The notes beneath the pieces are model-generated. The model had not been told where the DNA came from. It ran no database searches and saw nothing but the letters and a program-made list of their open reading frames with translations. Below, piece by piece: positions 5,284-62,756 of a stretch of DNA of 64,000 nt (positions within the stretch are counted from its first letter, which is position 1; each line of letters opens with the position of its first letter). Both the position numbers and the translations under genes were made by a program. Origin of the DNA: a virus (lineage: Duplodnaviria; Heunggongvirae; Uroviricota; Caudoviricetes); the IMG/VR virus record IMGVR_UViG_3300037512_000782, positions 32,001 to 96,000 of that record; one strand, 5' to 3'.

Positions 5284-5574
5284 TTAGCTGTCTGTACGTA
5301 CGGTTTCTTCGGCATTCTCAACCTCGTCTGGTGGACGATCATCTTCGGCCACTCGGTAAATGTAGCGTGGCCCGTGATACGGTTTATCATTTGAAAGGAC
5401 AAGGTCAACAGTCTCGCCGCCGTTGCTCAAGCACATGCCTTCCGCAATCTTCTCGGCGGTTTCGTATTCGGCGTAGCTAGGACGAATAAAAGAAGGAGCC
5501 TCTACGGAGAGGTCTTCGTAGTTGGCTCCCTTTTTGAAACTGGTGACGTCGTATTTTACGACCCAGAAACTCAT
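5284..5574 (-). CDS. Hypothetical protein
   Basis: 96 aa; start overlaps the stop of the upstream gene. Confidence 0.6.
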   Translation of the reverse strand: MSFWVVKYDVTSFKKGANYEDLSVEAPSFIRPSYAEYETAEKIAEGMCLSNGGETVDLVLSNDKPYHGPRYIYRVAEDDRPPDEVENAEETVRTDS

Positions 5575-6965
5575 TGTTTCTTTTCCTTCTTTTCTCGCTT
5601 GGCCTTTTCAGCCTCAGCCTTTTCGGCCTTCTCGCGTTCCTTCTCGGCCTCGACAGCGGCCTTGACCTTGGCAGCGTAGGCGTCGGAGAGCGTGTGGCCA
5701 AGCATTGCGTGGAAGTAGCCGCCGATGATCTGTTCAGAAGATACCGTCTTCTGCTTTAGTAATTCGCGCTGCTTCTTGTAGGCTTCGTCCCAGTTGACGC
5801 AGATTCTCCAGCGTTCGATCAAGCTCTTGATCGCTTCTGGCGTATCCGTGTTGCTGAACTGGAGGTTGGAGGCCACGCAAATGTGGTTGGCAGCCGTGAA
5901 CGGAGAGCCCTTCACACCAGCGATAGTCACCGCACCTTCGGCGACGGCGAGAACGTTGTCCGTATCGGCGTTGCAGAGTTCGTACGGATTGTTTTCGATA
6001 TCATCAGGAATACAAGTGATGACAAAGTCAAAACCCACGTCACGCTCAATAGCCATTGTCGACGCGAAGTTGTTGAAATCCACGACTGGGCTTGCCCAGT
6101 GCTGGATTGTCGTAACTTCTGGTTCAGAACCGTCCGGAAGCTGTTGCATCTTCTTGTAGATTTCCTTGCTCAAGCTGCCGACAGACGACACGGTAATCTT
6201 GTAGTCCTTCGTCACATTGTTCATCATGATGAACTTCTGGACGTTCATAGGAATAGTCGTACCCTTGATGAGGATCTTGGGACGACGGATTGTCGTGGCG
6301 TAATGAGAAGCACGAGCATTGATACGGTGCAACGGATACATCGTATCGTTCACGAAAGTATTGATGACGACAACGTCCTTGTCTTCCGGGATGAGGTTGC
6401 CCTTCTTGAGAACCAGCATCATGTCGGCAGTCGGAACGACGATTTCATCAGCGATGATCATTGCATCTTCGACCATGCGAGCGGTGAACATGTTAACCTG
6501 GCGGCCAGCCGGGGCGTCCCATACGAATTCGTCGAGAGCGTAGATCACACGCAAGCTGAGGTTGCGCATAATGCGGCGCTGCTTGCTTTCAGCTTCGAGG
6601 TCTTCGACTCTTGCATTAGTCGGAACTTCCATAGCACCGCCGCAGATTTCGTTTTCGTAGGCTTCAAGGGTGCCGTTGAGGTTATGGATGAACTTCGGAT
6701 TGGTCACGTTGTCAATCCAGAGTACGTTGTACTTGTGCAAGTCTGGCTGTTCGCGAAGGTATCCGTTACTGGTCATGGTCGTGACGGTAACGTCGGCCAT
6801 GGTACGGTACACGTTCTTGAAAAAGTCCAAAGCGGCGTAGCCACGAAGCGGAGAGAGTCGAGAATTGCCGTCAGAAACCAACAAGATGTGGAAAGCCAAC
6901 TTCTTCTCGGTCTTGTCGTTAAGGATGTCGTTAATGCGCTGATCAATCTGTTTTTGGAAATCCAT
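5571..6965 (-). CDS. Divergent glycosyltransferase-like protein (GT-B-like)
   Basis: HILLVSDG...LRG, RVIYALDEFVW and ADEIVVPT resemble phage GT4-like proteins. Directly downstream of gp47. Confidence 0.45.
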   Translation of the reverse strand: MDFQKQIDQRINDILNDKTEKKLAFHILLVSDGNSRLSPLRGYAALDFFKNVYRTMADVTVTTMTSNGYLREQPDLHKYNVLWIDNVTNPKFIHNLNGTLEAYENEICGGAMEVPTNARVEDLEAESKQRRIMRNLSLRVIYALDEFVWDAPAGRQVNMFTARMVEDAMIIADEIVVPTADMMLVLKKGNLIPEDKDVVVINTFVNDTMYPLHRINARASHYATTIRRPKILIKGTTIPMNVQKFIMMNNVTKDYKITVSSVGSLSKEIYKKMQQLPDGSEPEVTTIQHWASPVVDFNNFASTMAIERDVGFDFVITCIPDDIENNPYELCNADTDNVLAVAEGAVTIAGVKGSPFTAANHICVASNLQFSNTDTPEAIKSLIERWRICVNWDEAYKKQRELLKQKTVSSEQIIGGYFHAMLGHTLSDAYAAKVKAAVEAEKEREKAEKAEAEKAKREKKEKKQ

Positions 6966-6988
6966 ACGAAATTCCTAATGAATGTTCT

Positions 6989-7007
6989 CTTTTGAATTTT
7001 AAATTAC
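6989..7007 (-). promoter_or_regulatory. Conserved 19-nt element GTAATTTAAAATTCAAAAG (copy 1)
   Basis: Identical copy at 22827-22845; both lie just upstream of a start codon. Confidence 0.5.
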
Positions 7008-8119
7008 TTTATTTTCGCGTTGTATTCCTTGAGATATTCAAGGGCAACTTCCTTCGCATCTGCGCCATTAGAGAGTTCTGGCAAGATCTCCGGATGCTTT
7101 TCGAGGTAAAGCTTCGCCATGCCGACTGAATCGGTAGTCATGAGCTGCCTTGCTTCCTCCTCGGTCTGCGGCGTATCGGCTTCGCCTTCCTCGGCTGGGT
7201 CTTCGCCGTAGTACACAGTTTCGATGTAGATAGGCTTCTTGTCCACCAGATAGCCCTTCAAGTTCGCGGCATCGTCATAGGTGCGCGTCTTGTCGGTAGA
7301 ATAGCGGACGATGCAGTTGGACATGTCACGGTCGAAATCTGGGCCCAGTTCCGTATCCACGACGTCGACGAAAGTCGGAGAAATCGTATTCTCGACAAAC
7401 GCCAGTTCGCCAGTCGCGTCGTCATAGATGTGGTATCCAGCCGGGATGCCGACATGGCCAAATGTCTTCTGGAACGGAGTACCGACGTAGCAAATCGTGC
7501 TGTAGTCGTCACCGATGACCGATCGGCAGTGGTAGTGGCCACTGATAGTCAGCTTTGCAGCATTCAAGAAGCGCTTGGGATCGAAGCCAGCAGTCGATAC
7601 CGTCTTGGCTTCCATCTGGGCTCCAATCATGTCGAAGTGGCCTACGATGATGTTGTCGTCAATGTTGCCACGAGACATCTTGACGAGCCACTTGTTCACG
7701 CCGTCAATCTTGTCCTCTTGGATCCACGGAACGAAATACCACTTCTTAGTTCCGATGCTAGCGAAACCAACCTTGTCGATATAGACATTCACGTTCGGCA
7801 AGTTTTCTATAAAGCGAATCTGACACACGTCTGAACTGTTGTCATAAAGCATGTCATGGTTGCCAGCAACCACATAGCAAGTGAACTTGGAAAGACGTTC
7901 CTTGAAAAGGCGGTAAACCTTGTCCATCACGTCGGATGCGATGAACCTACGGTTGTCGAAAATGTCGCCAGTGAACACGACGGTATCTATGCCACGTGAC
8001 TCGAAGTCGGCGATCATCGACTCGACAATCGCATGCTGACCCTTCGTAAGTGCGTTGGTAATCGGTGCCTTTGCAGTCGTAAATCCGTAGTGCAAGTCAC
8101 CTACAATTCCGATTTTCAT
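7004..8119 (-). CDS. gp47: Recombination endonuclease, Mre11/SbcD-like (T4 gp47)
   Basis: Metallophosphoesterase motifs GDLH, GDIFD, GNHD, GHF, SGHYH, YVGTP. Confidence 0.92.
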   Translation of the reverse strand: MKIGIVGDLHYGFTTAKAPITNALTKGQHAIVESMIADFESRGIDTVVFTGDIFDNRRFIASDVMDKVYRLFKERLSKFTCYVVAGNHDMLYDNSSDVCQIRFIENLPNVNVYIDKVGFASIGTKKWYFVPWIQEDKIDGVNKWLVKMSRGNIDDNIIVGHFDMIGAQMEAKTVSTAGFDPKRFLNAAKLTISGHYHCRSVIGDDYSTICYVGTPFQKTFGHVGIPAGYHIYDDATGELAFVENTISPTFVDVVDTELGPDFDRDMSNCIVRYSTDKTRTYDDAANLKGYLVDKKPIYIETVYYGEDPAEEGEADTPQTEEEARQLMTTDSVGMAKLYLEKHPEILPELSNGADAKEVALEYLKEYNAKIK

Positions 8120-14951: not shown

Positions 14952-15363
14952 TCTTCTTTCCTTCCGGCAGCTTGCCGTTTACCTTGTATTCATACGCTTC
15001 GTTAATCAGCTCTGGGTCGATTTCCTTGTTGCGGATCATCGAGTCCGCTGACGAGGCGGACGTTTCGTAGACGGCCATGACTTGTTCACGGAGCTTGTTC
15101 GTGGCGGCAATCTCGGTAGGGAATGCGCGAAGATACCCGGTGTTGAGCTTGCAGCCGTTGAACGCCTCCATCACCTTTGCGCGAACCTTTGTTGTAAGTC
15201 GGCTGAACTCGACCGTGTTCAGCGCAAGCAGCGACTTGTAGATGGACGGAGTCATGGACAAGGAGTAAATCGCCGCATAGGTGTCATGCGAGGCGATATC
15301 CTCCATCGTCATCTTTCGACCAGCTATGCGGTCTTGAATGAATTTTTCGTGATCAAACGGCAT
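14932..15363 (-). CDS. Probable clamp-loader small subunit (gp62-like)
   Basis: Overlaps the gp44 stop as in T4; plausible size; sequence similarity weak. Confidence 0.5.
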   Translation of the reverse strand: MPFDHEKFIQDRIAGRKMTMEDIASHDTYAAIYSLSMTPSIYKSLLALNTVEFSRLTTKVRAKVMEAFNGCKLNTGYLRAFPTEIAATNKLREQVMAVYETSASSADSMIRNKEIDPELINEAYEYKVNGKLPEGKKNVRRKK

Positions 15364-16396
15364 ACTTCCAATCCGGTGCGTACTTCTTGAGAATCTGCAT
15401 TACGTTGAGCAAGAAGCCCCACAAGGCATACTCTTGGTCAACTTGGTGGTTAGACTGGTACATCGCATTGGAAAGAGCGACGCCGAACGGAATGAGCACT
15501 TCGTCTGGAAGGCGGTCGATTGCGTAATCGCCGAATGAACGGTACACGCCTTGGCAGAACGTGATGTTCTTCGATATAAAGTAGCGGAGTTCGCGCACCT
15601 TGAAGTTGACCGTCATGTCGAAAAGAGTTTCCGTATTGGACGGAGCCATGCTAGGCATCGTACCGATAATGCTGCCGCCATTTTCGAGGAACGAACGGTG
15701 CATAGTGGCGATCATCAAGCGGATGTCTGGGTAGCACTCGTTGATGATGTTGGCGACGAGGAACTTGTCCACCGTGCCGCCCTTGGCATCGCACTCGCCC
15801 TTGGCAATCTTCATCAAGCGCTTGTGGAGACGAGTCTTGTATTCCTTGAGTTCAGCCTCGGCGTCTTCCTCGTGTTCAAACTTTGCGCCGAAGTCGATAG
15901 CCATACAGCGAGACTGGATTGCTGGCGGAATGCGCCAGAGTTCGTTACACGTCAAGATGAATCGTAACGTGCTGGAAGTATCCTCGATTTCGGACTGAAG
16001 AACGCGGTAGAAGTCGGCTGGCTTGTTCGGCTTGTCGGCTTCGTCGATGATAACGAACTTCGGCTGTCCATCCGGAGAGCTGTACTTAGAAAATTCCTCA
16101 ATCTGGTCAATGATTTCGGAGTCACGCTTACCGAATAGGAACATCGACTGTGCGCCGATGATCTTCGGAATGGCCTTTGCTATAGAAGTCTTGCCAGTGC
16201 CCGGTGCGCCAGAGTGAAGGATGTAGTTGCCGAACGAATTCATTTCGATAGCGTTCTTGAACAAGTTCTCCACGTTGCGGTGGAGGATGATGCTATCCAA
16301 GTCAGTACCACGGTACTTCTCTTCCCAAGGAAGGTTGCTGTTGATGGCCGACTGCATATCGGCGGTAGCATTCTGCTGGTCAATTACGTTGAACAT
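15353..16396 (-). CDS. gp44: Clamp loader AAA+ subunit (gp44/RFC-like)
   Basis: PWEEKYR, GAPGTGKTS, IIDEAD, FILTCN, IQSRC. Confidence 0.93.
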   Translation of the reverse strand: MFNVIDQQNATADMQSAINSNLPWEEKYRGTDLDSIILHRNVENLFKNAIEMNSFGNYILHSGAPGTGKTSIAKAIPKIIGAQSMFLFGKRDSEIIDQIEEFSKYSSPDGQPKFVIIDEADKPNKPADFYRVLQSEIEDTSSTLRFILTCNELWRIPPAIQSRCMAIDFGAKFEHEEDAEAELKEYKTRLHKRLMKIAKGECDAKGGTVDKFLVANIINECYPDIRLMIATMHRSFLENGGSIIGTMPSMAPSNTETLFDMTVNFKVRELRYFISKNITFCQGVYRSFGDYAIDRLPDEVLIPFGVALSNAMYQSNHQVDQEYALWGFLLNVMQILKKYAPDWKYAV

Positions 16397-21532: not shown

Positions 21533-22816
21533 TTAAGCGTTGTAGGTACACTTCCTCAAGAACATACCGTTACCATAAGTCATCATGGTACGGCCATTCT
21601 CAAATCCGTGCTGAAGCACGAGGTCGGGGCAACCAGAATTGCGCACCATCATCGTGAACACGTCAAGCGGAAGGACGATTTCGAAGCCCGGCTTTTCGAC
21701 TTGGCAGTCACCAACGCTGATGTTGACGTGAATGCGTTCGTCTTCCAGACCTTCGATACCGATAAGGCCATCTTCGATACCATAGATGCGAGCCTTTCCA
21801 GTCGGATTGACATGGTTGATTTCGAAGTACATACCGATGGCAGCCGCGATAGATTCAGCCTTGATGTGGAACACACGCTCAAGTCCATCGTTGTTGTATG
21901 TCTTCAAGGTGGCATCACCGATGTCAGTTTCGAGAGTAGCGAACATACCAGAAATACGGAGCTTCTTGTTCTTAGTATCGAGATCGATAATGACATTGAG
22001 CGACAAGTCAAGGTCAAGCGCATTCACGAGAGGAATGGCCTTAAAGATCTTGGCTGGAATGCTGACGCTGAAGTCAGACGTATTGTCATACTGCTTTGCG
22101 CCTTCGCTGTTGTCGTTCACCATCACAGTATTCTGCATGGCGGTCGCAATGGTGCAATGTTCATCACCAGTTCGGTAAGACACACGACCATTCTTGCGGT
22201 GGATTTCGACAGTTTCGAAATTGTACACGCTGTCGAGAATCGTGTTAAAGGACATCTGATCCATTGCGATACGGACGTTGAAGTCGTCATCGCTGGCCAG
22301 CTTCACTTCAAACGGTTCGCACGGATTGAATCCGATTTCGAGTTCGAAACCGCCGATACCATCATTGAAGAAAGCACCTAGATAAAGCTTGCCTTCGCTG
22401 ACCCACAGAGCTGCAGTCTTTTCAGCAGTGCCCATCAAGTGACGCACAGCGTTGCAGAGGTCGTAAATCTTGATGAACACTGGGCCATCAAGTTCTACGG
22501 AAACCGGAAGAGCATCCATCTTCACATGGATACCGCTATCGGTGTCAATATGGAGCCAGATCTTGTTGTCCTTCGGATCCACCTTGGTTTCGAGCCTTGC
22601 GACGGTTTCCGTATCGAGCAGAGACTGTTCGATAAGGGCAAGACCTTGTCCGAAACGGCCTTGCAGCACGAACATGGTCAACGGCAAATCTTCGCCAGTG
22701 GACACTTCCTCGGCAGCATCTTCGGTCGTCGGAGCCAACTTGTTGAAGTCTTCAAGCATGCCGTGAAGCGAGCTTGCGCGAACTTTCTCGTCTTCTGTTA
22801 TTTTGAGTTCACTCAT
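21533..22816 (-). CDS. DnaN (beta-clamp)-like protein
   Basis: 427 aa with a three-fold pattern: LPVSVELDGPVFIKIYDLCNAVRHL, FSVSIPAKIFKAI, FEIVLPLDVFTMMV. Confidence 0.55.
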   Translation of the reverse strand: MSELKITEDEKVRASSLHGMLEDFNKLAPTTEDAAEEVSTGEDLPLTMFVLQGRFGQGLALIEQSLLDTETVARLETKVDPKDNKIWLHIDTDSGIHVKMDALPVSVELDGPVFIKIYDLCNAVRHLMGTAEKTAALWVSEGKLYLGAFFNDGIGGFELEIGFNPCEPFEVKLASDDDFNVRIAMDQMSFNTILDSVYNFETVEIHRKNGRVSYRTGDEHCTIATAMQNTVMVNDNSEGAKQYDNTSDFSVSIPAKIFKAIPLVNALDLDLSLNVIIDLDTKNKKLRISGMFATLETDIGDATLKTYNNDGLERVFHIKAESIAAAIGMYFEINHVNPTGKARIYGIEDGLIGIEGLEDERIHVNISVGDCQVEKPGFEIVLPLDVFTMMVRNSGCPDLVLQHGFENGRTMMTYGNGMFLRKCTYNA

Positions 22817-24531: not shown

Positions 24532-25422
24532 TTACTGAACCAAGTCGAACTGGGAATAAGCGCCAGCGGAGCATTCAGCCGCACCCATCCAGAGAGTCAT
24601 CGGCTTTTCTGGATCGGCACCAGGGATAAGCGAAGTTGCCTTGAGGGACATCTGCTCGACACCCTTGAACGATGCGTAGGTGATGTCGATGTCGTATTCT
24701 CCGCCGATGCCCTTCATGTAGTTGAAGAGCTGGACTGGGAACACGGTGACGGTGCCCGGTCGGAAAATCTTGTGGACAAGCTGCGTATCGATGCCGCGAG
24801 TGCATGTCGACGGTACGCAGTAAGTAATCTGCTGAGACATCTTGCCCTTGATGTAGAGCTTGATGCCGCCGTCGTCGATACGGAGAGTCACGAACTCGCA
24901 CGTCGGAACCGCACGGAGCTTCGTAACAAAGTCCTTGACCATATCCTCGGAGAAGTGCATTTCACCGACCTTCATCATAGGGTCGTTATCCCTAGTGAAC
25001 GGAATGTGAGAATGGCCTTCCTTGAAACAGCTGGGGTCAGCAGTCGGCGTACGGCAAGTGATACCGCCACCAGAAAACTTGATGTACTCGTAACGGCGAC
25101 CAGTAATCGACGTGTCTACGGACAGTTCAGCCGTGCCGCGCTTGGGGAAGTTGGCCAGTTCCGCATACTTCACAAATTCATTCAGCGAGAAGATGTTGAT
25201 GCGGTTGGTATCGAAATCCAAGTCTGCATCCGATGCAGCAAGGTGTGTCATCATCGCCATGTCTGGAACGCTGATGTGGTTTCCCGGAATACGGCCCTTC
25301 ACGTTACCCTTGAACATGATGACGCATCCAGTCTTTGTAATAGAACTGATGTTCTTCAAGATCTTGTAGAACGGTTCGCTAAAACGAATGCCTACCGCTG
25401 GTTTTTCAATTTCTTCAGCCAT
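24532..25422 (-). CDS. gp45: Sliding clamp (gp45-like)
   Basis: FSEPFYKILKNISSI and INIFSLNEFV match the T4 gp45 LS......LKNFA.IN and IYDLN.FL patterns; TADPS. Confidence 0.75.
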   Translation of the reverse strand: MAEEIEKPAVGIRFSEPFYKILKNISSITKTGCVIMFKGNVKGRIPGNHISVPDMAMMTHLAASDADLDFDTNRINIFSLNEFVKYAELANFPKRGTAELSVDTSITGRRYEYIKFSGGGITCRTPTADPSCFKEGHSHIPFTRDNDPMMKVGEMHFSEDMVKDFVTKLRAVPTCEFVTLRIDDGGIKLYIKGKMSQQITYCVPSTCTRGIDTQLVHKIFRPGTVTVFPVQLFNYMKGIGGEYDIDITYASFKGVEQMSLKATSLIPGADPEKPMTLWMGAAECSAGAYSQFDLVQ

Positions 25423-25470: not shown

Positions 25471-27651
25471 ATCGCCCTTCGTGACCACTTTTTTGCCGAT
25501 TTCGACGAATTTCGGCTCAAGCTGGTTCCACTCAAGCGGCGTAAACGGAGCATTGACATCGACACACCAGCTGCAGTCAACCTCGATCTGCTGCATGCGA
25601 GCCTCCAGACGGTGCATCATCATGGAAACGACGTATGGTACGCAGCCCCTACCGTCACCAAACTTATACAGCTTGCCGAAGTTCTTCAAGATGGGAAGGT
25701 AGCCGCCACGGATAGCGACGAACGGCCCGTCCAGAACGGCAACGTCATGCGAACCAGTGACAGACACGGTTCCAGCAACACGGCGGTTGTACATTCCGTC
25801 CTTTGTCGAATATTCGCTATACATGCCATAGGTATTAGGGCAGCGCATCCAAGTGCCATCCGGCAAGAAATTCTCATAGCCGAACGGAGCGACAGCACCT
25901 ACATCGCTAGGGACGGCTTCGAGCTTTTGTATGAACGACGGATCATATATCAGCGAAGACGCATGGGCAAGTACAATCCAAGAAGGCGGAACCTTCGGAT
26001 TCACCTTGACAATCTTTTCAGCGACACGAGCGATGTTGAGGAATATCGACATCTGCGGATTGCTCTTCTTGCACATCCTTACTGGCTGGTCACTAGCCAA
26101 GTAGACAAGTTCATCACGACTGGAGGCATACTTCTTGTATGGAACCTTGACGTCGGATCCCTTGCGCCTATAAAGAATGGTAATCACGCACGGCGTCTTA
26201 CTGTGCTGCAAGATCGTGTTATTGTCAAGACGGATTGTCTCGACCGGGCGGATACCCAGAGCCTTGCGAAGCTGGTTCTTCTCGCCTTCTTCCTTGGCGC
26301 GTTCCGCATATACGGTACGCCTACGGTCTTCTGCGCGAAGTTCGTTTTCGTACAAGGCAGCCTTGATGGCGACTTCGAATTCGTCCATCACCGGGGTCTC
26401 CCATACAAACTGCTTGGACGTCTTCTTACGAGTCTTCGCAGCAGCCACTCCAGCCTTGTGACGCTTGTAATAGGCAGCACGACGGTTCGTCTTGTTTAGC
26501 TTGTCCAGATGTTTCTTCTGGAATTCGGAGAGTTCCATCTTCGGATCGACATTGACTCCAGAAGCGACAATGGCGTCAACATCCTCTTGAACCCAGCCCC
26601 ACATCGGATACATCGGCCAGCCCTTGGCTTGTACCTCGGCACAATGGGCATTGTACTCGTCAACCGTCATCACGCAATAGTCCTTCGACTTCTGAATGTG
26701 CATCAGCTTGGGAGGAGCAACGACGCGGCACTTACCGGATATCAAGTTGTCAATCCAGTAATTGCTCTTGCCGAACTTTGTACGGATAGCGAAACGGTTG
26801 TAATACGGCTTGCCTTCACAATAGAAATAACGGCGGTTGATCTGGTCGCATAGCTCATCGAGTTCGGACTTCTTGAACAAATTCCTCGTGCGAGCGCCAA
26901 CCTTGACTTGCTCTGGATGCAGAAGCTTCATGAATATGAACTTCGTTAACGTGCGACGAGAAATCTTCATGTATACGCAAGCCATGCCAGTAGTCAGCAC
27001 GTCTGGAAGAGGCTCCTTCTTTATCAAACGGCTACCTTTCTTTACGGTCTCGTTGATAGAGTCGTTGACATACTGGATGATGTTCTCACGAGTCATCCAC
27101 TTGTATCGCTTGCGGCCAGTCGTACTGTGAATCCAGAACGCGATGTTCGCCTTGCCAGCTCGGCAAGCTGCTCGGAGCTTTCCCGGTGTCGTACCGATGA
27201 ACGTAGCGCTGTCCTTGACATTTAGAGTCTTGGGAAGGAACTTGAAATTCTTGGACGGCACGTAGTTCTTGAGGAACCAGTCGTAATCACGGAAGTAGAC
27301 GAACTTGCCGTAATCGTCGGCTGGCTGTTCCTTGATAATGCCCTTTCTGACCAGTCGCAGATACGTCATCGGACTTACATCCAAGTCAGCGACGATTTCA
27401 GCCGGACGGATCTTTGCGTAAGGGTGCGTAGTGCAAGGAGGTTTCAGACCATAGGCTGAAAGCTTCTTCAGACACGCATCGTAACGGTATTTCTTCTGGC
27501 CTTGATAATTGACTATGTAAGGTATCCCATCAAAGAAACCCATTCCCTTCAAGTCAGAAACCGGACGGTCAAGATACTGCGCAATCTTCAACGGCTGCAC
27601 ATATTCATCTATACCCTTCTGTTTCAACGCACCAAGAGCCATTAGAACCAC
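25450..27651 (-). CDS. Multi-HTH (excisionase/MerR-like) basic protein fused to a degenerate GT-A (GT2-like) domain
   Basis: LNVKDSATFIGTTPGKLRAACRAGK; VLTTGMACVYMKISRRTL...LFKKSELD; C-terminal WIVLAHASSLIYD, DVGAVAPFG, VAVLDGPFVAIRG. Confidence 0.55.
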   Translation of the reverse strand: MVLMALGALKQKGIDEYVQPLKIAQYLDRPVSDLKGMGFFDGIPYIVNYQGQKKYRYDACLKKLSAYGLKPPCTTHPYAKIRPAEIVADLDVSPMTYLRLVRKGIIKEQPADDYGKFVYFRDYDWFLKNYVPSKNFKFLPKTLNVKDSATFIGTTPGKLRAACRAGKANIAFWIHSTTGRKRYKWMTRENIIQYVNDSINETVKKGSRLIKKEPLPDVLTTGMACVYMKISRRTLTKFIFMKLLHPEQVKVGARTRNLFKKSELDELCDQINRRYFYCEGKPYYNRFAIRTKFGKSNYWIDNLISGKCRVVAPPKLMHIQKSKDYCVMTVDEYNAHCAEVQAKGWPMYPMWGWVQEDVDAIVASGVNVDPKMELSEFQKKHLDKLNKTNRRAAYYKRHKAGVAAAKTRKKTSKQFVWETPVMDEFEVAIKAALYENELRAEDRRRTVYAERAKEEGEKNQLRKALGIRPVETIRLDNNTILQHSKTPCVITILYRRKGSDVKVPYKKYASSRDELVYLASDQPVRMCKKSNPQMSIFLNIARVAEKIVKVNPKVPPSWIVLAHASSLIYDPSFIQKLEAVPSDVGAVAPFGYENFLPDGTWMRCPNTYGMYSEYSTKDGMYNRRVAGTVSVTGSHDVAVLDGPFVAIRGGYLPILKNFGKLYKFGDGRGCVPYVVSMMMHRLEARMQQIEVDCSWCVDVNAPFTPLEWNQLEPKFVEIGKKVVTKGDLNPKYI

Positions 27652-28790
27652 ACCTCTACTTTCTGTTTTGCTTGCATCTTCTGTACCAGCTGCAGACGAG
27701 TCTCGCGCTGCTTCTGGCGTTCACGTGCGGCCATGTCGCCGCGTTCGAGAGCGAAGATAATAGCCGCGCCTTCTGGCGGCAAGCTACGACCTTCGATAAA
27801 TTCACTGGAAACGTAGCCGTCGTCATCGACTGGCATCTCGCCAGACAGAACGGCTCCGTTGACATCCTTTTCCTTTATTCCAGACCAGTTGAACCACTTG
27901 TACCCCTTCTTGACGGATTCGATACGAGCAAGTTCACCAGCGTTGTCGTTATCCCAGATGACCGTACAGTTTTCCTTGTGCTCTGCAATCTGCGGATTGT
28001 CCGCAATGACTTCGTCAAAGTGCGAGATGCCGCCGATGGCGATAGCATTGCGAATGAACGTAGAGTCAATCGTTCCTTCCAAGATGTAGAACGGCTTGGT
28101 CACATCGAGGAAGTCGATGTTGTACGCTTGACGCTTGACGCCTTCGAAGTTTCGATAGCGCAGCTTGTTATCGGGGTCTAGCGCACGAGCGTCGAACTGC
28201 GTCCACGCACCGCCGTACTTGTAGAACGGAATGATCAGACGGTTCTTGAACTCGTTGCCGATCGGACGTCCTTGCTCGTTCAGCACGAGTCCGCCCAAGT
28301 CGTCGCGCTTCAAGAACTGGTCGCCTTCCTGGCATACGAACCAAAGGTCATACACTTCTGGACGAATGCGGCGTCCTTGACAGAAAGCCACTGCTTGTTC
28401 CGCGAGAGGATGATGGTCTAGTAGAGAAATGAGTTCGCCATCTTCGAACGGCAAGTCGACTTTCTTCTTGGGCAAGACTTCTTCTCGCTTGTCGTCAGAC
28501 CTATCGCCGTCGAAACCGAACAGAAGCATTCGCTTGTATGCGGCGTCGTCATTCTCCTTCAAGTATTTCATGAAGTGCATGCTCTGTCCGCATTTATAAC
28601 AACGGAACAGCCAACGGTCACGATAGACGTAAGCCTTCTTCTTGTTCGGTCTTGCTGGATCACCACAGAACGGACAAATGAAATTATAGTATTGGGACTT
28701 CTTCTCTAATGCGAAAGAGTTGTCGCCGAATTCAGCTTCCACCGCTTCTTCCAGCGCCGCATCAGGAATATTAGCATAGGAAAAGGACAT
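27642..28790 (-). CDS. gp61: DNA primase (gp61-like)
   Basis: CPFCGD...CYKC zinc finger; RLIIPF; TOPRIM EG.IDS and WDND. Confidence 0.93.
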   Translation of the reverse strand: MSFSYANIPDAALEEAVEAEFGDNSFALEKKSQYYNFICPFCGDPARPNKKKAYVYRDRWLFRCYKCGQSMHFMKYLKENDDAAYKRMLLFGFDGDRSDDKREEVLPKKKVDLPFEDGELISLLDHHPLAEQAVAFCQGRRIRPEVYDLWFVCQEGDQFLKRDDLGGLVLNEQGRPIGNEFKNRLIIPFYKYGGAWTQFDARALDPDNKLRYRNFEGVKRQAYNIDFLDVTKPFYILEGTIDSTFIRNAIAIGGISHFDEVIADNPQIAEHKENCTVIWDNDNAGELARIESVKKGYKWFNWSGIKEKDVNGAVLSGEMPVDDDGYVSSEFIEGRSLPPEGAAIIFALERGDMAARERQKQRETRLQLVQKMQAKQKVEVWF

Positions 28791-28808: not shown

Positions 28809-28837
28809 GTGGCGCTCAATGGTTAGTCGAGCGCCAC
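28809..28837 (-). terminator. Probable terminator after gp32
   Basis: GTGGCGCTC...GAGCGCCAC followed by TTTATTT on the minus strand. Confidence 0.6.
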
Positions 28838-46200: not shown

Positions 46201-49200
46201 CACGGCAACTCCGTTATTACGGGCGGCTGCGGCATCGTCGTTAGACGCATAGTGTACAAGTTCATTGAGCGCGTTGACGGCGATCGAATAATCCTTCAAT
46301 ACGGTCTTCATCTGGTCAAGCGTAACTTCATCGTTCACCATAGCATACAGCAATCCTTGATATTCTGGATGCTGTGAAATCAAGTTGTTGATTTCATCTT
46401 CCGATGCATCAAGCTGCTTCTGCGACTGTTCCATTCGCGTCAAGCACTTCGCCGCATGCTTACGATAACCCAGCTTTACATTCGGATGGCCGATATAGAA
46501 CTTGACCCAATCAGCAGTATCCCAGTTGTCAGACTCTTGCGGAGCATCCGGAAGATTCATAGCATCAGTCATGTAATCGCCAAGTTCAGACGAAGATTCA
46601 GAATGAGTCGTCGCGGCACCTTGGTACTTACTGAAAACTTGAATCACAGACTTGAGGCCATCGACAGATTCTTCGGCAACATCGCTAGACGGAACGATAT
46701 CAGTCTGCGCATTGTCTGCGTCGAGCTCGGCTGTTTGAAGCTTGGCATTCAACTCGTTCTGCGGTGCCATTGCATTTAGTTCAGCAAGACTCTTCTCGCC
46801 GCCTTCTGGAATATCATAAGTCGGCGGAATTGCAGATGCACTTTCCGGTTCTTCGACATTGAGCTGCTGACCAGCATCCAGCAAGGTTTTCATCACTCGG
46901 ACATATTGGTCAAATTGGTTGATACGCAGCTTTTTCAAAGCAGTCATGTTAGCGATCGAATTACCCGGCATCGTATTCGCAATGGCGTTCACCACGGCAA
47001 GGATATCGCGAGTAGACAAGTCGCTAGTATTCACGGCGTCATTCAGTCGTGAACGCAATGTTTTCAAGGATGCCAGCTCCGGATTGTCCGTTAGCGAATT
47101 AGTCATCGAGTCGGCAAGCTTACTCAAATCGTCGACCGCATTCTCGCGATCAGCAATCAAGATTTTGCATGCATTGATAATCTTGACAGAGTTCTCCGGC
47201 TTCTTCGCTTCGGCGGTCTTGTTTGCCGCATTCGAAATGCTATCGAATAGCGCATTCACTTCGGCGCTAACTTCGCGATAATTAGCTGGATAGAGCTGCT
47301 GCACAATCGGAGCAACTGGCGAGTCCTTATGCGAATATGCATAGCGCACAAGACGGTCGGACATCCTTACGTAATCATGCAAAACGGTAAGAAGGAGCCA
47401 CGGCATATTACCAGCGCTATACAAGCGAGCATCCTTATAGGTGCTAACCACATCGCAAAGCACGGTGATAAGTGCAGAGTCTGCACTTTCAACCATTGCA
47501 CCACTCATTTTAGAAACGAAACCATTGATCGCTTCGGACTTACCCGATACCAAGGTCATTAGCTTCGGCGCATAGTTGTAAACGGTTTCAACCGAAGCCG
47601 AATAGCGTCCGCCGACGCTGTTCGCAAATTCACTGACAGCCTTAGTCACGTTACTACAAAGCACACGAGTCTTTGTCAGAAGTTCAGACAAGTTAGTTCC
47701 TTGAGAACGCTTGTACACACTATCGGCCAACAACGTACGCTCCTTCAGCGAAGCGCCTTGCGGAATCAAGTGCGTATACACGAGCTTGTCTACAAATTTC
47801 GAATTGCTCAATGCCATCGTAGCTTTCGCATGCTGGCTAGTCTTGGTATCCTTAACGACATTGGAAGTCGCGTCGATATCAAGCAACTTGTTTACCAACG
47901 GCGACACTCTCTCGGAGTCGTCCATATTGCCATTCTTCAAGTACGAGTATGACTTGAGACCTTGAAGCATAACCCAAGATGGGTTTTCAGAAATTCGGAC
48001 TGGAACCAACCCAGAGCTGATGTAGTCCTTGTAGTGGTTACGAATTTCCATTCGAGGAATCGTATCGACTACACCAGAGGTGCCAGTAATACTATCGTCA
48101 TAACCGACAACGAGTTCTTCGTTCTCTGGATCATACCTAAACAATTTCGTAGTCGCAAGACCAGCCGCAGTCAAACCTTCCTTCTTCTTACGGTCATTTG
48201 TGCTTTCCGTACTAAAGATAGCGACGGCGCTAGGCATCTTGACGGCGTTAATCGAAGTGCCGTCAACAGTCTTACCGGATACAGAGTTACCGCCAACAAA
48301 AATGATATTCTTGGCCACAGAGTCAAGCGCATCGCGGATCGCCTCGACGGTTTCTCCATCGACTTCATGCAATCCAAGACGAGAGCAGAACTTCGCGAAA
48401 TCTTGGTCATACACATCGTTCTGTTTCGGACGGCTATCAAGCGCATCGTAGTATTCTCGCAGCATACCAGCAAGTTGAGTATGCAATCCGATTGCCGTAT
48501 CAGTGCTAGTCGCGATGGAAGCAATTCGATCACAGAACTCATCAGCAAAGTCAGCTGCAGACGCAGCGTCGACTGGATCCGTAGACATCGGCATGCCGAC
48601 ATCCTCGAACATCATTTGTAACACGCGATACACCAGCTTCGAAGTCAGTCCGTTGTACTTCAAATGACGCAAGAACTCAACAGAGAATACCTTGATATAA
48701 GTCTCGCAAGTACAACCAGTCTTATCGTTGAGCACATTAGATTGAGACGTCTCGTCACCGATAGTGCTCATATCTTTTTCGATATAATCGCCAGAATTAA
48801 TTTCATCGCGGTCATTGACTTTAGCATTATCGTCAATTTCATCCAGCGAATCCGTCATTGACGACAAGTCATATTGAGGCGCATCATCCTTTGTTCTCCA
48901 AGCGTTCGCGATCAGATTGTACAACTGGCGCACCATGGAATCGTCTGGGTTATACCAATGAGACGGATTTTGCGCATTCGGACTTGAAGGTTTTCCAGCG
49001 AAATCCTTACCGTACAAATCACGAGGGATTGCATAACAAGCAAATAGCAACCAAGCGGCATTTTTGGCATCTTCTTCGCTAACGCTCTTCGAAATTCCAG
49101 TAACTTTCAAGATTGACTGGACGGTTTCATAAATCTTATTGATCTTTCCAGCAACGACACCAAGCATACTGTCAACCGTATTGCTGGCAGCATAATCTTG

Positions 49201-49665
49201 TGACAACGGCGTATGACGGCGAGTCGGGGTCAGATTGTAAATAGTATCCTTGATGACTTTCGCAAACTTAGTGCCAATCTTCTTGAACGGGTTAGTCTGG
49301 CCAACTTCGTTCTGGCGATCGATCAATCTCTTCATAACGGCAGAGGCATGCTTGAACATACTTTCGTCCGCCAAGTTCTTCAAGTACACAGCCAACGGAT
49401 GCACTACAGACGCCATCTCGTAAATATAACGACGGCGAGAATCTGGCCTCGTATTGTCACGAAGACCGCTGTTCCAACCGCCATCCTTCTCGACCATGTC
49501 GGCAACCACATCAAGAACAGCGCCGACTTCCTTATCGAGCTTGTAATTAGCCCACGACAATTCGTATTTAGTATTATCGTCGCCTTGAAGCTCCTGAACT
49601 AGACCATAGAGTTCAGACAGTTCTGATGAAGTACTAACCACGTTTTCAAGCAATGCTTCGGCCAT
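43219..49665 (-). CDS. Very large (about 2150 aa) hypothetical, mostly helical protein, probably virion-associated
   Basis: Uninterrupted ORF; ATG 28 nt after GATAAACT (49694-49701); N-terminal ALLEN; C-terminal PKPK tract. Confidence 0.8.
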   Translation of the reverse strand: MAEALLENVVSTSSELSELYGLVQELQGDDNTKYELSWANYKLDKEVGAVLDVVADMVEKDGGWNSGLRDNTRPDSRRRYIYEMASVVHPLAVYLKNLADESMFKHASAVMKRLIDRQNEVGQTNPFKKIGTKFAKVIKDTIYNLTPTRRHTPLSQDYAASNTVDSMLGVVAGKINKIYETVQSILKVTGISKSVSEEDAKNAAWLLFACYAIPRDLYGKDFAGKPSSPNAQNPSHWYNPDDSMVRQLYNLIANAWRTKDDAPQYDLSSMTDSLDEIDDNAKVNDRDEINSGDYIEKDMSTIGDETSQSNVLNDKTGCTCETYIKVFSVEFLRHLKYNGLTSKLVYRVLQMMFEDVGMPMSTDPVDAASAADFADEFCDRIASIATSTDTAIGLHTQLAGMLREYYDALDSRPKQNDVYDQDFAKFCSRLGLHEVDGETVEAIRDALDSVAKNIIFVGGNSVSGKTVDGTSINAVKMPSAVAIFSTESTNDRKKKEGLTAAGLATTKLFRYDPENEELVVGYDDSITGTSGVVDTIPRMEIRNHYKDYISSGLVPVRISENPSWVMLQGLKSYSYLKNGNMDDSERVSPLVNKLLDIDATSNVVKDTKTSQHAKATMALSNSKFVDKLVYTHLIPQGASLKERTLLADSVYKRSQGTNLSELLTKTRVLCSNVTKAVSEFANSVGGRYSASVETVYNYAPKLMTLVSGKSEAINGFVSKMSGAMVESADSALITVLCDVVSTYKDARLYSAGNMPWLLLTVLHDYVRMSDRLVRYAYSHKDSPVAPIVQQLYPANYREVSAEVNALFDSISNAANKTAEAKKPENSVKIINACKILIADRENAVDDLSKLADSMTNSLTDNPELASLKTLRSRLNDAVNTSDLSTRDILAVVNAIANTMPGNSIANMTALKKLRINQFDQYVRVMKTLLDAGQQLNVEEPESASAIPPTYDIPEGGEKSLAELNAMAPQNELNAKLQTAELDADNAQTDIVPSSDVAEESVDGLKSVIQVFSKYQGAATTHSESSSELGDYMTDAMNLPDAPQESDNWDTADWVKFYIGHPNVKLGYRKHAAKCLTRMEQSQKQLDASEDEINNLISQHPEYQGLLYAMVNDEVTLDQMKTVLKDYSIAVNALNELVHYASNDDAAAARNNGVAVKRMFAYTSSDESVMAQLVYVLTNYLTKPAETQYNELLDVLANVRNTVEKFSKNPLSLRLVDYAYNSVKADSDPEQLFTNIVKVITDIGDKFLDRLEGNAELPILRGMNKVDSPASPSDKYGKATDSFARSLLRAGDKDTAKESTATGKTDTKEAKARMAYLPYVKADLAENMELSKYAYMLGKAFNTYDRIMRDERVSANELEKRVFHSTLSSLKGSLLFAKGLCSNDLQRELLSALMDDERKGDKNYPTLASVYAAAKNGTDIGSYSLMHGGSVGTADKIVNDQRSVALAFNDKGSKVAPGTGSGIDAVTISELVFGDAQHVYKDDDMASLAHDLRMNVFNKLVNTYGAVDELGEVNFNSDYKNSATELLAEAIKSLYRICDDMETPISAVITVSTSLGQRAGRANVMSYVSDSLKNEVDMDFDTMSMVSGETNAYPQRVSGEQSRVDYDWVDQFADIISKIPEELTPNELLSCVEAYCQNEKAQQQMMANPKYAEVVRIINDTLRIETSTGVPTGLWGDTSTARKDTINRLFNAVVNGMDDDKTWAQRAVELKQQFMETLKKGGNILSFAGVMPSEAARKRVGHLRMNPYYAVTMPTNASDVNSVIKALRDDGIVEYNGAMVHLKYPGMSLDKNTFRYIVMMSIEINHKIKAYDECDAFNTALMFYSTGVRFDAFIELLERTSQLDNIDSVAVSNATNAIAKSFDVKPYGDMVRTNLGWFTIPAYDALCLSAAMDKRGPVHGFKISVDALTGGISSEEYDAMISAVDKERADESRAVKSDLLDAAVGIISKAYNVSRDDGLVKCRLGSMTDRMFDALCYSSVPRDIDVNDPKFAETVLAKFKQLYTNMATGNRVSYDIRDVSRKGHSSNGAETVDVDEENIDDVDGDNEEPTSTVVGADGTERTFGGKSNGTPKPKPHANVPAKPAKVKEPKPKPTPKPKANPEPELTGDEMIDSMPMKQKRPKKRKASAAAPVVQQAQEYDAADLDFMDM

Positions 49666-49693
49666 TGGAATCACCCATATTTAATCGGCAAAT

Positions 49694-59218: not shown

Positions 59219-59227
59219 GGTTAATTT

Positions 59228-59689
59228 ATGCGAGGTACAATAACTTATTGGGATGGCATTCGTCGGTTCTTCGCCGAGCGCGGGTTTGACCGGGCCAAGT
59301 TGGACAGAAACTGCTTTGACGGTTTCAAGATTGTCTCTGCCGATATTCACGAGCCGCTTGAAGGCTATGCGGTTTTCCGTGAATCTGCACCGGATATCTT
59401 TGCGCAGTTCGACCGTCTCGACTGTTCTGTAGACCGTCCGACGGATTACTACCGCGACTTCTTTATCGGTGAATGCAAGCGTCCGCGTGAGGCGCAGCAG
59501 TTGGTCGATGCTCTTTATGAAGTTGCCGCGATGGATCCTCCAGAACCAGTATATGAATCCGCTGATGTCGTTCATACGGTTAGTTTGGAAGTCTTGAACG
59601 ATATTGCTGCCATGAGTGGCAGTACACCAGCAATTAAAGGCGAACCGTTTGTCAATACCGATGGTGAGCTCGTTGTAGAACTGGCTTAG
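59228..59689 (+). CDS. Hypothetical protein
   Basis: 153 aa in operon, AAGG RBS. Confidence 0.7.
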   Translation: MRGTITYWDGIRRFFAERGFDRAKLDRNCFDGFKIVSADIHEPLEGYAVFRESAPDIFAQFDRLDCSVDRPTDYYRDFFIGECKRPREAQQLVDALYEVAAMDPPEPVYESADVVHTVSLEVLNDIAAMSGSTPAIKGEPFVNTDGELVVELA

Positions 59690-59697
59690 GAGTTATT

Positions 59698-61053
59698 ATG
59701 GAATTCAAGTCAAAGCCTCTCAAGAGTTATCCGTTCAAGAACAATCGCCTTCTCGTTATCGACTGGGCATCGCTTTCCTATCATCAGCTTTGGTCAATGA
59801 AGACGAAGTCCAGCAAGAAGCAGCTGGGCAGTGTGTTGCCGGAAGACGACGAAATGATCGTCTGGCGAGCAAAGATGTTCAACCGCATGCTGGACTACAT
59901 CAGACTTTTCAATCCGATGGACATTATTCTCTGCCTTGAAGGCAAGAAGGCATGGCGCAAGCAAGTCGTCAAGGACTATTACACAAAGTATGCCGAAGTC
60001 TATTACGATAGCATCGGCTACTATGTCTGCAGCGACAATTATGCCTACCGTGTGACGAAATGCGGCGATACTTACGGCGTGGCCAAGATTTCTCCGAAGG
60101 AACGCCCGGTGTTCGAATCGTTGAAGCATCGTCCGCTCGGAAAGTTGCCTCAGCAGACCCAAGACATGCTTTGGGGAATCAAGACGCTCTCTGGAACTCC
60201 GGTGCTTCCGTCGTACAAGGGAAAGCGTGGCGCGTCTCCTTGGGAATTCTCGGTCGACAAGAAGTATTGGCAAGCCTACAAGGATGAATACGCAATGGAA
60301 CTTGCTCCGTTCTTCCGCGCAAAGGCTGTCAAGTGCGACATTGCCGAAGGCGACGACATGATCTATGCCGCCGTCAAGAAGTACAGCGGCGACTACGACG
60401 ATGTCATCGTCATCACGCGAGACTCCGATATGTCCCAGATCGACGTGAAGAACTTGAAGATTTTCAACCACACGTCCGAGAATTTCGTCGAATGTCTCTA
60501 TCCGCAGAAGTACCTTGACGCCAAGGTTCTATCTGGAGATACCTCTGACAATATCCGTGGCATGGCCTATGTCGATGCGAAGACTGGCGAGTACAAGCCG
60601 ACCAAGGCTAACGCCGTCTCCGAAAAGGAAGCCGTGACCTTGCTTGAAAACTGCCCGAACATCTATGCTGTAGCCCAGGCTAATGGCTGGGGCGAACAGT
60701 ACATGAGGAACCGTACATTGATCGACTTGTCGATGGTTCCTCGTAACGTGTCCGAGGCTATCGACGTCGTGATGGATAAGCCAGCCCCAGAACTGGCTAT
60801 CGACTGGAACAAGACCAATGAATGGGGCATCCCAGAAAGCAAGGTGGACTACTATCGCACTCTGCAGCAGTTCGGTTTCTTCGCCGTACTCAAGCGCGAA
60901 AACGCCAACCCAGAATCGTTCAAGGGCGAACAGCTCGTCCAGAAGGAAGCCGACATGAACCAGAAGCTGCTGGATGATATGTCTACTGGTCTGGATTTCG
61001 AGTCGGTTGAAGGAATCTTCGACGGCCCGGCGTTTGACATCGGAATGCTTTAA
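59698..61053 (+). CDS. rnh: T4-type RNase H / 5'-3' flap exonuclease
   Basis: LLVID, WRK, YKGKR, AEGDD, TRDSDMSQ, GDTSDNI, RNRTLIDL. Confidence 0.9.
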   Translation: MEFKSKPLKSYPFKNNRLLVIDWASLSYHQLWSMKTKSSKKQLGSVLPEDDEMIVWRAKMFNRMLDYIRLFNPMDIILCLEGKKAWRKQVVKDYYTKYAEVYYDSIGYYVCSDNYAYRVTKCGDTYGVAKISPKERPVFESLKHRPLGKLPQQTQDMLWGIKTLSGTPVLPSYKGKRGASPWEFSVDKKYWQAYKDEYAMELAPFFRAKAVKCDIAEGDDMIYAAVKKYSGDYDDVIVITRDSDMSQIDVKNLKIFNHTSENFVECLYPQKYLDAKVLSGDTSDNIRGMAYVDAKTGEYKPTKANAVSEKEAVTLLENCPNIYAVAQANGWGEQYMRNRTLIDLSMVPRNVSEAIDVVMDKPAPELAIDWNKTNEWGIPESKVDYYRTLQQFGFFAVLKRENANPESFKGEQLVQKEADMNQKLLDDMSTGLDFESVEGIFDGPAFDIGML

Positions 61054-61085
61054 AGTTATATTTATTGGCGTATATTGAGGAAATT

Positions 61086-62756
61086 ATGGCAGAAACACCA
61101 GTAAACGCATTGGTTCGTGTGTCCACGAACAATGAACTTGATTTTAACGAATGGCTCGATTACCATATCGCGCTGGGATTTAACCGTATATTTGTCTATG
61201 ACTCTGGGAACCACGGCTGGCTTCCGGATGCTTGCCGCAAGCGTGAAGAACATGTCACGCTTGTTCCGCTTGCTGGTAATGACTGGCGCAAGAAGAGCAA
61301 CATCATCAAGGCTTATGTCGCACAGACTACGGAACCGTCTTGGGCAGTGTGCCTCGAAGACGACGAATTCATCTGGCTTGACTTGAACGTAAGTCGCTCT
61401 ATCAGCAGCTTCATCAACAAGTATTTCGGCACTGCAGCTTTGGCTATGTCGGTGTACGTGAAGTATCTGTCGTCCGAAAAGCCGATGAAGAACCGTGTCG
61501 GCACACTGATCGACTGCTTCCAGCATGCTCGTCCGAATCCGCAAGGTCTCGTGCATCCGTGCTCGCATACGCCGAACTTCACCTTTACTTTCTTCTACGT
61601 TCCAGACAATCGTTGCGTCCCTATGCGCGGCCCTCTTACTCCGAACACGCAGTATTGGCGTGACTTCAAGGGCACTGTTCTTACGGAAGCTGGCCTTGGC
61701 AAGTATCTCACTTCCCAGCAGTACAATCCGGACGCCTATCCAGTGCGCGGCTACAAGTATGGCTTGAAGTCTGGTATGGAAATGGGCATGCAGCCTGGAA
61801 CCAAGCCAGTCGGCTATACCGTCCGTGACAACACCATGATCAACGAACGCGCCGCCTTGCTGCAAATTCCGGTCAACGAGGCTACCGAAGAACTGTTCGC
61901 CAAGGACGAACTTCTCGTGGAACAGCCGACGTTGCCGAAGCGCGAAATTTCTCCAGAAGAAGCTGCGGAACTCGAATTGCCGATTCCTCTTGGTAAGATC
62001 GACACCTTCATCCTTTATGGCTATCCGCTTGAACATGTCATCGACTTCGCTGTCAAGAACGGCTACGAAGATACTCCGGAACACCGCACGGTGGTCGAGC
62101 GCGTGTATCGTCGCGAATGTTCAATGATTATCGAGTCGACTCCGGTCTACAAGCGTCTCGCCGAACTTGAAGCCGAAGGTGGCCGCACCGACGACATGAT
62201 CTGTGCCGAACTCAAGATCAGCTACCCGGCCCTCTTGAAGATGCGCAAGTGCATGTCAGTGCTGAACATCAATGAACACGAAGCCAAAAAGGCAGATGCT
62301 GAAGCTGCTGCAGTCGAAACTGACAATGCGCAAGCGAAGGCTGTCGTCGAAAGTTCCGACATGGCCGAACTCACCAAGCAGTTTGACGAGACCGTCAATG
62401 CCCATCCGATTTCCAAGGAAGACGAGAAGCGCTTTGACGACAAGGTCGAGGAACAGAAGGCCAAGCGCCGCGAACGCGCAAAGAAGGCTCGTGAAAAGAA
62501 GAAGGCCAACCAAGAAGCCAAGAAGGCTGCCGAGGCTACCGAGGATGAAACTCTGCTGAGTGGCGATATCAAGATTTATAAAGATATCTATGCTGATGCG
62601 AGCTACGCATTGATTGGTAAGGCATCCGACAAGGCATCCGACAAGGAACCGCCTAAAGAGTCCGAAAAGAAGGAAGACGATGTCGAACTCGACCTTGGTG
62701 ATACTAACCTTCTGAACAATACCGACCTTTCCGCATTTGGTAATATAGATGCATAA
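61086..62756 (+). CDS. GT-A (GT2/GT92-like) domain protein with HTH-like segment and charged tail
   Basis: EWLDYHIALGFNRIFVYDSG, WAVCLEDDEFIW; GRTDDMICAELKISYPALLKMRK; overlaps the gp46 start. Confidence 0.65.
   Translation: MAETPVNALVRVSTNNELDFNEWLDYHIALGFNRIFVYDSGNHGWLPDACRKREEHVTLVPLAGNDWRKKSNIIKAYVAQTTEPSWAVCLEDDEFIWLDLNVSRSISSFINKYFGTAALAMSVYVKYLSSEKPMKNRVGTLIDCFQHARPNPQGLVHPCSHTPNFTFTFFYVPDNRCVPMRGPLTPNTQYWRDFKGTVLTEAGLGKYLTSQQYNPDAYPVRGYKYGLKSGMEMGMQPGTKPVGYTVRDNTMINERAALLQIPVNEATEELFAKDELLVEQPTLPKREISPEEAAELELPIPLGKIDTFILYGYPLEHVIDFAVKNGYEDTPEHRTVVERVYRRECSMIIESTPVYKRLAELEAEGGRTDDMICAELKISYPALLKMRKCMSVLNINEHEAKKADAEAAAVETDNAQAKAVVESSDMAELTKQFDETVNAHPISKEDEKRFDDKVEEQKAKRRERAKKAREKKKANQEAKKAAEATEDETLLSGDIKIYKDIYADASYALIGKASDKASDKEPPKESEKKEDDVELDLGDTNLLNNTDLSAFGNIDA

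Follow-up and report, generated by a model that had tools for sequence, protein, structure and literature searches.

Glycosyltransferase folds in fixed slots beside replication and recombination genes of a giant uncultured T4-like rumen phage clade

We analyzed a 64,000-nucleotide stretch of DNA (hereafter the window; bases 32001–96000 of the 348,092-bp IMG/VR record IMGVR_UViG_3300037512_000782, CheckV completeness 91%) from a giant uncultured T4-like rumen phage, concentrating on three genes, P1, P2 and P3, whose open reading frames (ORFs) are all present in the window. The three products have glycosyltransferase (GT) folds, belong to mutually unrelated families (hhalign probability 2–4%; no BLASTP match between P2 and P3) and are encoded in fixed slots next to replication or recombination genes: P1 directly after gp47, P2 between the primase and the sliding clamp, and P3 between a FEN-type nuclease and gp46. 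We tentatively favor a reading that we consider possible rather than probable, in which P1 and P3 would be active transferases that work on a protein or another non-base acceptor in the replication phase, whereas P2 would be a DNA-tethered, GT-A-derived accessory of the replisome lacking a DXD motif. A T4-style blanket glycosylation of the phage DNA appears unlikely.

Pfam and PHROGs searches showed that the phage encodes a very divergent T4-type gene set, about 25–28% identical to the T4 homologues by tblastn. It comprises a B-family DNA polymerase, a gp44-like clamp loader, a gp45-like clamp, a gp41-like helicase and a DnaG-type primase, together with gp32, UvsX, UvsY, gp46 and gp47 as well as the structural genes for tail sheath, tail tube and baseplate wedge. 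P1, P2 and P3 themselves yielded no match among 50,697 GenBank phages (tblastn), no PHROGs family, nothing meaningful in NCBIfam and, by single-sequence as well as profile searches, nothing among PDB sequences.

P1 (5571..6965, minus strand) encodes a 464-residue protein and has its own Shine–Dalgarno sequence, its start lying 38 nt past the stop of gp47 (7004..8119, minus strand), an SbcD/Mre11-like nuclease identified by Pfam Metallophos, phrog_100 and tblastn to T4-like gp47. The description of P1 as a GT-B-like gene directly after gp47 was confirmed by its AlphaFold model (pLDDT 87), consisting of two Rossmann-like domains with an inter-domain cleft and resembling solved GT-B enzymes over most of its length in Foldseek and VIA comparisons. 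No Pfam GT family was matched above cut-off (Glycos_transf_1, Glyco_transf_4), the single Glyco_transf_4 match among the 28 family members having an E-value of 0.089. The best structural matches were PimA, BshA, TarM and GlgM, whose acceptors are glycolipids, teichoic acid, small molecules or polysaccharides. The fold is GT4-like, but P1 is only 9–12% identical to retaining GT-B enzymes of this family (BshA, PimA/PimB', MshA and the methylmannose polysaccharide mannosyltransferase 7qsg), from which it also differs by a Lys/Glu-rich C-terminal helix and by the sequence Y-[E/N/H]-x4-D-x-D in place of the EX7E motif. Invariant within the P1 family are K234-G235, located where the C-terminal domain starts, as well as E307-R308-D309 and D334-x-D336, the last of these preceding the helix where GT4 enzymes carry EX7E, a motif that P1 itself lacks. 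As judged from the alignment, these invariant polar residues sit where catalytic residues are usually found and form the pattern expected of an active enzyme. The original prediction had seen altered canonical motifs in all three proteins; as GT-B enzymes do not carry a DXD motif, this part falls away for P1.

The comparison with T4 is of particular interest for P1, as the T4 a-gt gene lies beside gene 47, in the same slot that P1 occupies here, in agreement with the earlier statement that a T4 glucosyltransferase gene is found among replication genes. The shared position is not accompanied by similarity at the sequence or profile level: P1 aligned with the T4 glucosyltransferases AGT (GT72, PF11440; PDB 1y6g, 1xv5) and BGT with an hhalign probability of 0.2% each and matched neither PF11440 nor PF09198. 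A weak Rep_fac_C match had raised the possibility of a clamp-loader subunit, which we rejected given the GT-B fold and the presence of the true gp44-like loader at 15353–16396.

P2 (25450..27642, minus strand) encodes a basic protein of 730 residues (pI 9.6) consisting of a winged helix-turn-helix (HTH) array, a long helix and a GT-A domain, as delineated by AlphaFold, alignment and the junction with the primase. It had been described as an HTH–GT-A fusion overlapping the primase stop. The modelled HTH array, the GT-A domain and the overlap were recovered, whereas the start had probably been placed three codons too early, at the GTG at 27651; it is probably the ATG at 27642, because the homologues start there and a protein of 730 residues results, like the homologues. 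This ATG overlaps the stop of the DnaG-type primase (27642..28790, minus strand; phrog_47) as TAATG, and the gp45-like sliding clamp (24532..25422, minus strand; phrog_223 and synteny) follows directly downstream of P2. A strong terminator-like hairpin (28809–28837, minus strand) of 11 pairs, 7 of them G–C, followed by a T-run, lies between gp32 and the primase, P2 and clamp genes.

The amino-terminal array (26563..27603, minus strand) is modelled by AlphaFold as repeated helix-helix-hairpin units, about five in number and Xis/MerR-like, in line with a BFVD match to an HTH protein. The secondary structure pattern of each unit is like that of the excisionase/MerR-type winged HTH (HTH_17, PF12728), proteins from which P2 differs by the tandem arrangement and the fusion to GT-A; its matches to HTH_17, seen in 7 of the 18 P2 family members, all remain below the Pfam cut-off of 27 bits, the best reaching 19.8 bits. 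The carboxy-terminal domain (25492..26199, minus strand) was assigned by AlphaFold, Foldseek and alignment and has the α/β/α Rossmann-like architecture of GT-A in the predicted structure, with H3, a GT-fold structural protein of the vaccinia envelope, as top Foldseek match. The canonical motif is indeed altered in P2, as had been noted: what follows the WIVL strand is a non-conserved H-A-S, leaving the domain without DXD. Invariant across the long and short forms of the family are P553, W555, D567, L574, four glycines, P640 and R645 (730-residue numbering), with D567 as the single invariant Asp. Only 42 relatives of this GT-A domain were found among 1.84 billion representative proteins, making it an orphan family.

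A GT-A fold is common to P2 and several small viral proteins (Glyco_tranf_2_5-like clusters; vaccinia H3, 5ej0; PBCV-1 A64R, 2p72; STIV A197, 2c0n; majastridin, 2qgi), from which P2 is set apart by the lack of a Pfam match, also in its short forms, by the lack of DXD, by its fusion to the winged-HTH array in this lineage and by its position between primase and clamp. Glyco_tranf_2_5 (PF13712), suggested by the ESM Atlas, was discarded as it had no sequence match in the genome or in the short forms. In distant relatives P2 is a short GT-A protein of ~345–397 residues as mapped by blastp (open frames of 347–403 residues), in which nothing aligns to the HTH array, indicating that GT-A is the ancient element and the array a later addition in one lineage. 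Taken together, the missing invariant DXD, the orphan status and the lineage-specific array make it plausible, as far as sequences can tell, that P2 is an eroded GT.

P3 (61086..62756, plus strand) encodes an acidic protein of 556 residues, in which Pfam and alignment delineate a GT-A domain (Glyco_tranf_2_4, about residues 1–275), a helical region, a Lys-rich linker and a conserved tail. It lies downstream of a FEN/RNase H-type 5'–3' exonuclease gene (59698..61053, plus strand; Pfam 5_3_exonuc_N and phrog_107), is preceded by a Shine–Dalgarno sequence, and its stop overlaps by 8 nt the ATG of gp46 (62749..64000, plus strand), a Rad50/SbcC-like ATPase (Pfam AAA_23, SMC_N; phrog_77) that runs past the window end. 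A consensus scan placed a candidate sigma-70-like promoter, TTGACA-17-TATATT (11 of 12 positions), just upstream of P3 (61034..61062, plus strand). The T4 late-promoter motif TATAAATA, considered as a guide to expression timing, does not occur within the window.

The GT-A assignment of P3 rests on a Glyco_tranf_2_4 match of 39.2 bits, against a Pfam gathering cut-off of 27.5 bits, which is shared by all 23 family members. From the proposed GT-A–HTH protein overlapping the gp46 start, the GT-A domain and the overlap were thus retained, while the HTH part was not recovered: no Pfam HTH matched in the 23 members, and residues 276–420 gave no usable match in the ESM Atlas. An altered motif was likewise not found in P3, as D92-x-[D/E]94, a DXD-type motif, is acidic in 23 of 23 sequences; D39 is invariant, and D143, H147 and R149 are also kept. 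This set of residues resembles that of an active enzyme, and for P1 and P3 alike we infer catalytic activity from residue conservation.

Two further elements of P3 are of note. The linker holds a near-copy of a major-capsid-protein peptide (62550..62618, plus strand; 17 of 23 residues identical, pairwise E-value 8e-8), corresponding to residues 362–384 of the gp23-like protein (G000:110266-111759, in coordinates of the whole record) and limited to the closest relatives of P3. Possible explanations are a recent insertion, a targeting function or a role as pseudo-substrate. The protein ends in an acidic-hydrophobic motif, NLLxNxDLSAF... (62706..62753, plus strand), conserved after the variable linker and a candidate docking peptide. 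Its sequence DLSAFGNIDA, placed after a disordered charged linker, is of the same general kind as the C-terminal gp45-binding peptides of T4 gp43 (SLDFLFG) and gp55 (SLDFLYEAND), a likeness by motif only, since the residues do not exactly match SLDFLF or SLDFLY. The DNA polymerase of this phage ends in DESDFMLSMF, which is acidic-hydrophobic like the P3 tail. The DLSAF form of the tail is confined to the closer subgroup, and the tail does not co-vary with that of the polymerase.

The gp55-like late sigma factor of the phage (G000 about 118.1–118.9 kb, plus strand; tblastn E-value 4e-7 against T4 gp55) was considered as a calibrator of the clamp-binding motif and dropped, as its Lys/Ala/Glu-rich tail contains no SLDFLY-type peptide. 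Lys-rich tails resembling that of the gp55-like protein also terminate P1 and the 591-residue helicase. A tail much like that of the DNA polymerase, ..AADLDFMDM, was observed in a 2151-residue ORF without Pfam family (43219–49674, minus strand).

The tight coupling to replication and recombination genes that had been read from this single sequence proved to be stable across related loci. From IMG/VR we fetched 38 related loci for P1, 21 for P2 and 18 for P3, of which 16 cover both sides of P3. P1 directly follows gp47 in all loci that include the gp47 side, even at P1 identities as low as 31%, and the two genes diverge at similar rates. In contigs of sufficient length the order is sheath, tube, UvsY, a 232-residue protein, gp47, P1 and a 523-residue protein, with UvsY inverted or undetected in the most distant loci. 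For P2, the corresponding order is helicase, further genes, gp32, primase, P2, clamp and proteins of 542 and 427 residues, the latter encoded at 21533–22816 of the window. Primase and P2 are adjacent in all loci covering that side, and P2 and clamp in 19 of 20, the remaining one having no detectable clamp match. The succession of primase, GT-A and clamp persists where the primase is about 38% identical, with the clamp mapped in three of four such loci. FEN, P3 and gp46 are consecutive in 15 of the 16 loci covering both sides; in two sibling loci P3 and gp46 are separated by an additional ORF. The suggested check for co-occurrence was likewise positive, as profile searches found P2 in 15 of the 16 related records. 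P3 was found in 8 of the 16, all belonging to a group of 10 closer records; the remaining two of this group are 41% and 26% complete. As these slots persist to about 30% identity, P1, P2 and P3 are core genes of the clade rather than sporadic accessory genes. The genes gp46 and gp47, which are neighbors in T4, are here separated by about 55 kb and located on different strands, each with a GT gene at its side.

The original prediction had proposed a replisome-coupled glycosylation of DNA. Formation of 5-hydroxymethylcytosine (hmC), 5-hydroxymethyluracil and 5-hydroxycytosine needs a thymidylate-synthase homologue (PMC13326640), and a search for PF00303 gave no candidates in the 91%-complete genome, with control genomes responding. 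ThyX was not found in the genome by profile search, and tblastn with the T4 enzymes gave no match to gp42 (E-value 0.068), to a-gt or b-gt (E-value ≥ 0.5 for both) or to gp1. TET/JBP (PF12851) had no match in the genome or in 16 relatives, in a search that also returned no true positive from the control genomes. For the 7-deazaguanine pathway, no DpdA/TGT was found in the genome and QueC reached only 17.6 bits, below cut-off. A ParB-type activator is one known route (PMC13229309), and the idea of a ParB-dependent thymine dioxygenase was dropped as the genome contains no detectable ParB N-terminal domain. No NTP_transferase, sugar nucleotidyltransferase or epimerase was found in the genome. The hydroxymethylase, TET or sugar-pathway genes to be looked for outside the window thus went undetected in these genome-wide searches, as did all known routes to a base that could accept a sugar.

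Thymidylate synthase homologues were detected in 3 of 16 relatives, their scores of 289 bits in one and about 418 bits in the other two being ThyA-like. With thymidylate synthase present in only three relatives and TET/JBP matches in none, the GTs are conserved independently of acceptor-base enzymes. In one relative the ThyA-like gene (G003:34356-35162) lies directly beside the DNA polymerase gene; it is missing from the genome studied here and from a 93%-complete relative. Known phage DNA GTs usually adjoin a ThyS or 5mYOX gene (bioRxiv 10.1101/2023.12.21.572611). The 5mYOX (TET)- and ThyS-linked systems (also PMC8256090 and PMC13326640) comprise GT-A and GT-B enzymes that are sometimes located near replication genes, as here, but cluster the GT with a C5 methyltransferase and 5mYOX, or with a thymidylate-synthase homologue, neither of which was found beside P1, P2 or P3. 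Two C5 DNA methyltransferase genes are located far from the three genes (G000:182735-183613 and 258882-259745).

The composition of the whole genome provides a second, indirect line of evidence. Fourteen of the 64 six-bp palindromes occur at zero copies, with 15–96 expected for each (CTCGAG 0 observed/96 expected, CGGCCG 0/85, ACGCGT 0/51, CATATG 0/43), and 17 palindromes occur at two copies or fewer, compared to 4 of the 3,824 non-palindromic 6-mers expected 20 times or more. The median observed-to-expected ratio was 0.73 for palindromes against 1.005 for the non-palindromic set (Mann–Whitney p = 8e-21). The T4 control (72 kb) exhibited a much weaker effect, with a median ratio of 0.90. Since the purged sites include GC-only as well as T-containing ones, neither cytosine nor thymine seems to be blanket-protected, and the outright removal of palindromes indicates that the DNA appears exposed to restriction. 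The T4 AGT system thus differs from the present one, whose genome lacks gp42, gp1-type or other hmC enzymes and shows restriction-site purging; together with the missing acceptor-base enzyme and the restriction of thymidylate synthase to 3 of 16 relatives, this argues against the T4-like blanket form of the proposal.

Outside the window we found at least two further GT2-family genes, raising the genome total to at least five GT genes. By Pfam-type domains, one combines GT2 with TPR and lies between ORFs of 1672 and 1247 residues (G000:140935-142065), and another combines GT2 with Glyco_transf_7C and lies between nrdD and the large terminase gene (G000:7507-8565); a weak Glyco_tranf_2_3 match marks a third candidate (G000:316755-317672). 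The large terminase (996 residues; G000:8629-11619, plus strand) contains a LAGLIDADG domain mid-protein and may hold an intein or an inserted homing endonuclease. Near P1, tail sheath and tube are encoded a few genes upstream, and the gene that always follows it (3837..5408, minus strand) encodes the 523-residue protein, with two CxxC pairs and probably a gp26-like baseplate hub as suggested by phrog_150 (4 of 16 family members, best E-value 2e-5), synteny and alignment. The N-terminal half of this protein is variable and Pro-rich, the C-terminal half conserved, with a GLPSxGLFY motif and the two CxxC pairs. GT genes are hence scattered through the genome, several of them touching structural genes.

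In the reading that we tentatively favor, P1, P2 and P3 would be vertically inherited core genes of an uncultured jumbo T4-like phage clade, each co-expressed with a replication or recombination gene (gp47 and then P1; primase, P2 and then clamp; FEN, P3 and then gp46). P1 and P3 would use host nucleotide sugars and most likely be active early in infection, on an acceptor that is most likely not bulk phage DNA; a protein, belonging to the virion or bound to DNA, or a different non-base acceptor would be more probable. P3 would probably be brought to its partner by the conserved C-terminal peptide. P2, ancestrally a protein of about 350 residues encoded directly after the primase, would more likely be a nucleotide- or nucleotide-sugar-binding accessory of the replisome than a classical metal-dependent transferase. 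We favor a protein or virion acceptor because of the GT2 genes near giant ORFs and the terminase, the baseplate-hub candidate following P1 and the capsid peptide in P3. Three points weigh against this reading: the GT-A assignment of P2 comes from a model of moderate confidence (pLDDT 70.6), the purge of restriction sites is compatible with a sparse or site-specific modification, and most ORFs of the 348 kb genome are unannotated, so that a novel base hydroxylase may remain among them.

A replisome-docked glycosylation system lacking a base derived from thymidylate synthase or TET, in which P3 would be recruited through its clamp-type tail and P2 through its HTH array to sparse DNA sites modified by new chemistry, or to O-glycosylate gp32, the clamp or Mre11/Rad50, seems unlikely to us. 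Its DNA variant, a sparse, site-specific or chemically new glycosylation with P3 riding the clamp, P2 binding DNA and P1 in the role of the T4 α-GT, we regard as equally doubtful. In its favor are the a-gt gene in the same slot after gene 47, the basic character and DNA-binding-type units of P2 and a P3 tail of the same general kind as the gp43, gp55 and polymerase tails, and the principle is not a new concept, as T4 α-GT co-purifies with the gp45 clamp according to PMC13216743, which cites Sommer et al. 2004. This is countered by the missing acceptor-generating enzymes in both the genome and the 93%-complete relative, the strong purge, the usual proximity of phage DNA GTs to ThyS/5mYOX genes (bioRxiv 10.1101/2023.12.21.572611) and the dissimilarity of P1 to AGT and BGT, as well as by a P3 tail that does not co-vary with the polymerase tail and an HTH array that is not ancestral.

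Somewhat less likely again is that host glycans, glycolipids or small molecules are remodelled by the GTs in the course of takeover, as in an envelope altered to achieve superinfection exclusion, and that early co-expression alone explains where the genes lie. Such a role would suit the acceptors of the closest structural matches of P1, the resemblance of P2 and P3 to GT2-type enzymes and the early-type promoter (a sigma-70 consensus match) before P3, and host donor pools would be used given that the phage has no sugar-nucleotide genes. It leaves the HTH array and the docking-type tail unexplained, however, and accessory genes for envelope modification seldom keep a single position across so much divergence. 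We consider it improbable that all three proteins are non-catalytic GT folds serving as scaffolds or nucleotide-sugar sensors of the replication and recombination machinery, as the original prediction had offered for dead GT folds. The absence of DXD and the single invariant Asp in P2, its top match to the structural protein vaccinia H3 and the lack of donor-synthesis genes in the genome are consistent with this idea, which is plausible for P2 only; P1 keeps K234-G235, E307-R308-D309 and D334-x-D336, and P3 keeps D39, D92-x-[D/E]94, D143, H147 and R149, many invariant polar residues for proteins devoid of catalysis.

For phage biology, these data advise caution, as GT genes near replication genes alone do not justify inferring sugar-modified DNA. 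If the GTs act at the fork on a target different from a hydroxymethylated base, phage DNA or the replisome would be modified in a novel manner; if virion proteins are glycosylated, a giant rumen phage clade would decorate its particles with genes expressed alongside replication genes. The orphan GT-A gene kept between primase and clamp across deep divergence represents an unexplained and testable conserved gene of the T4-type replication cluster.

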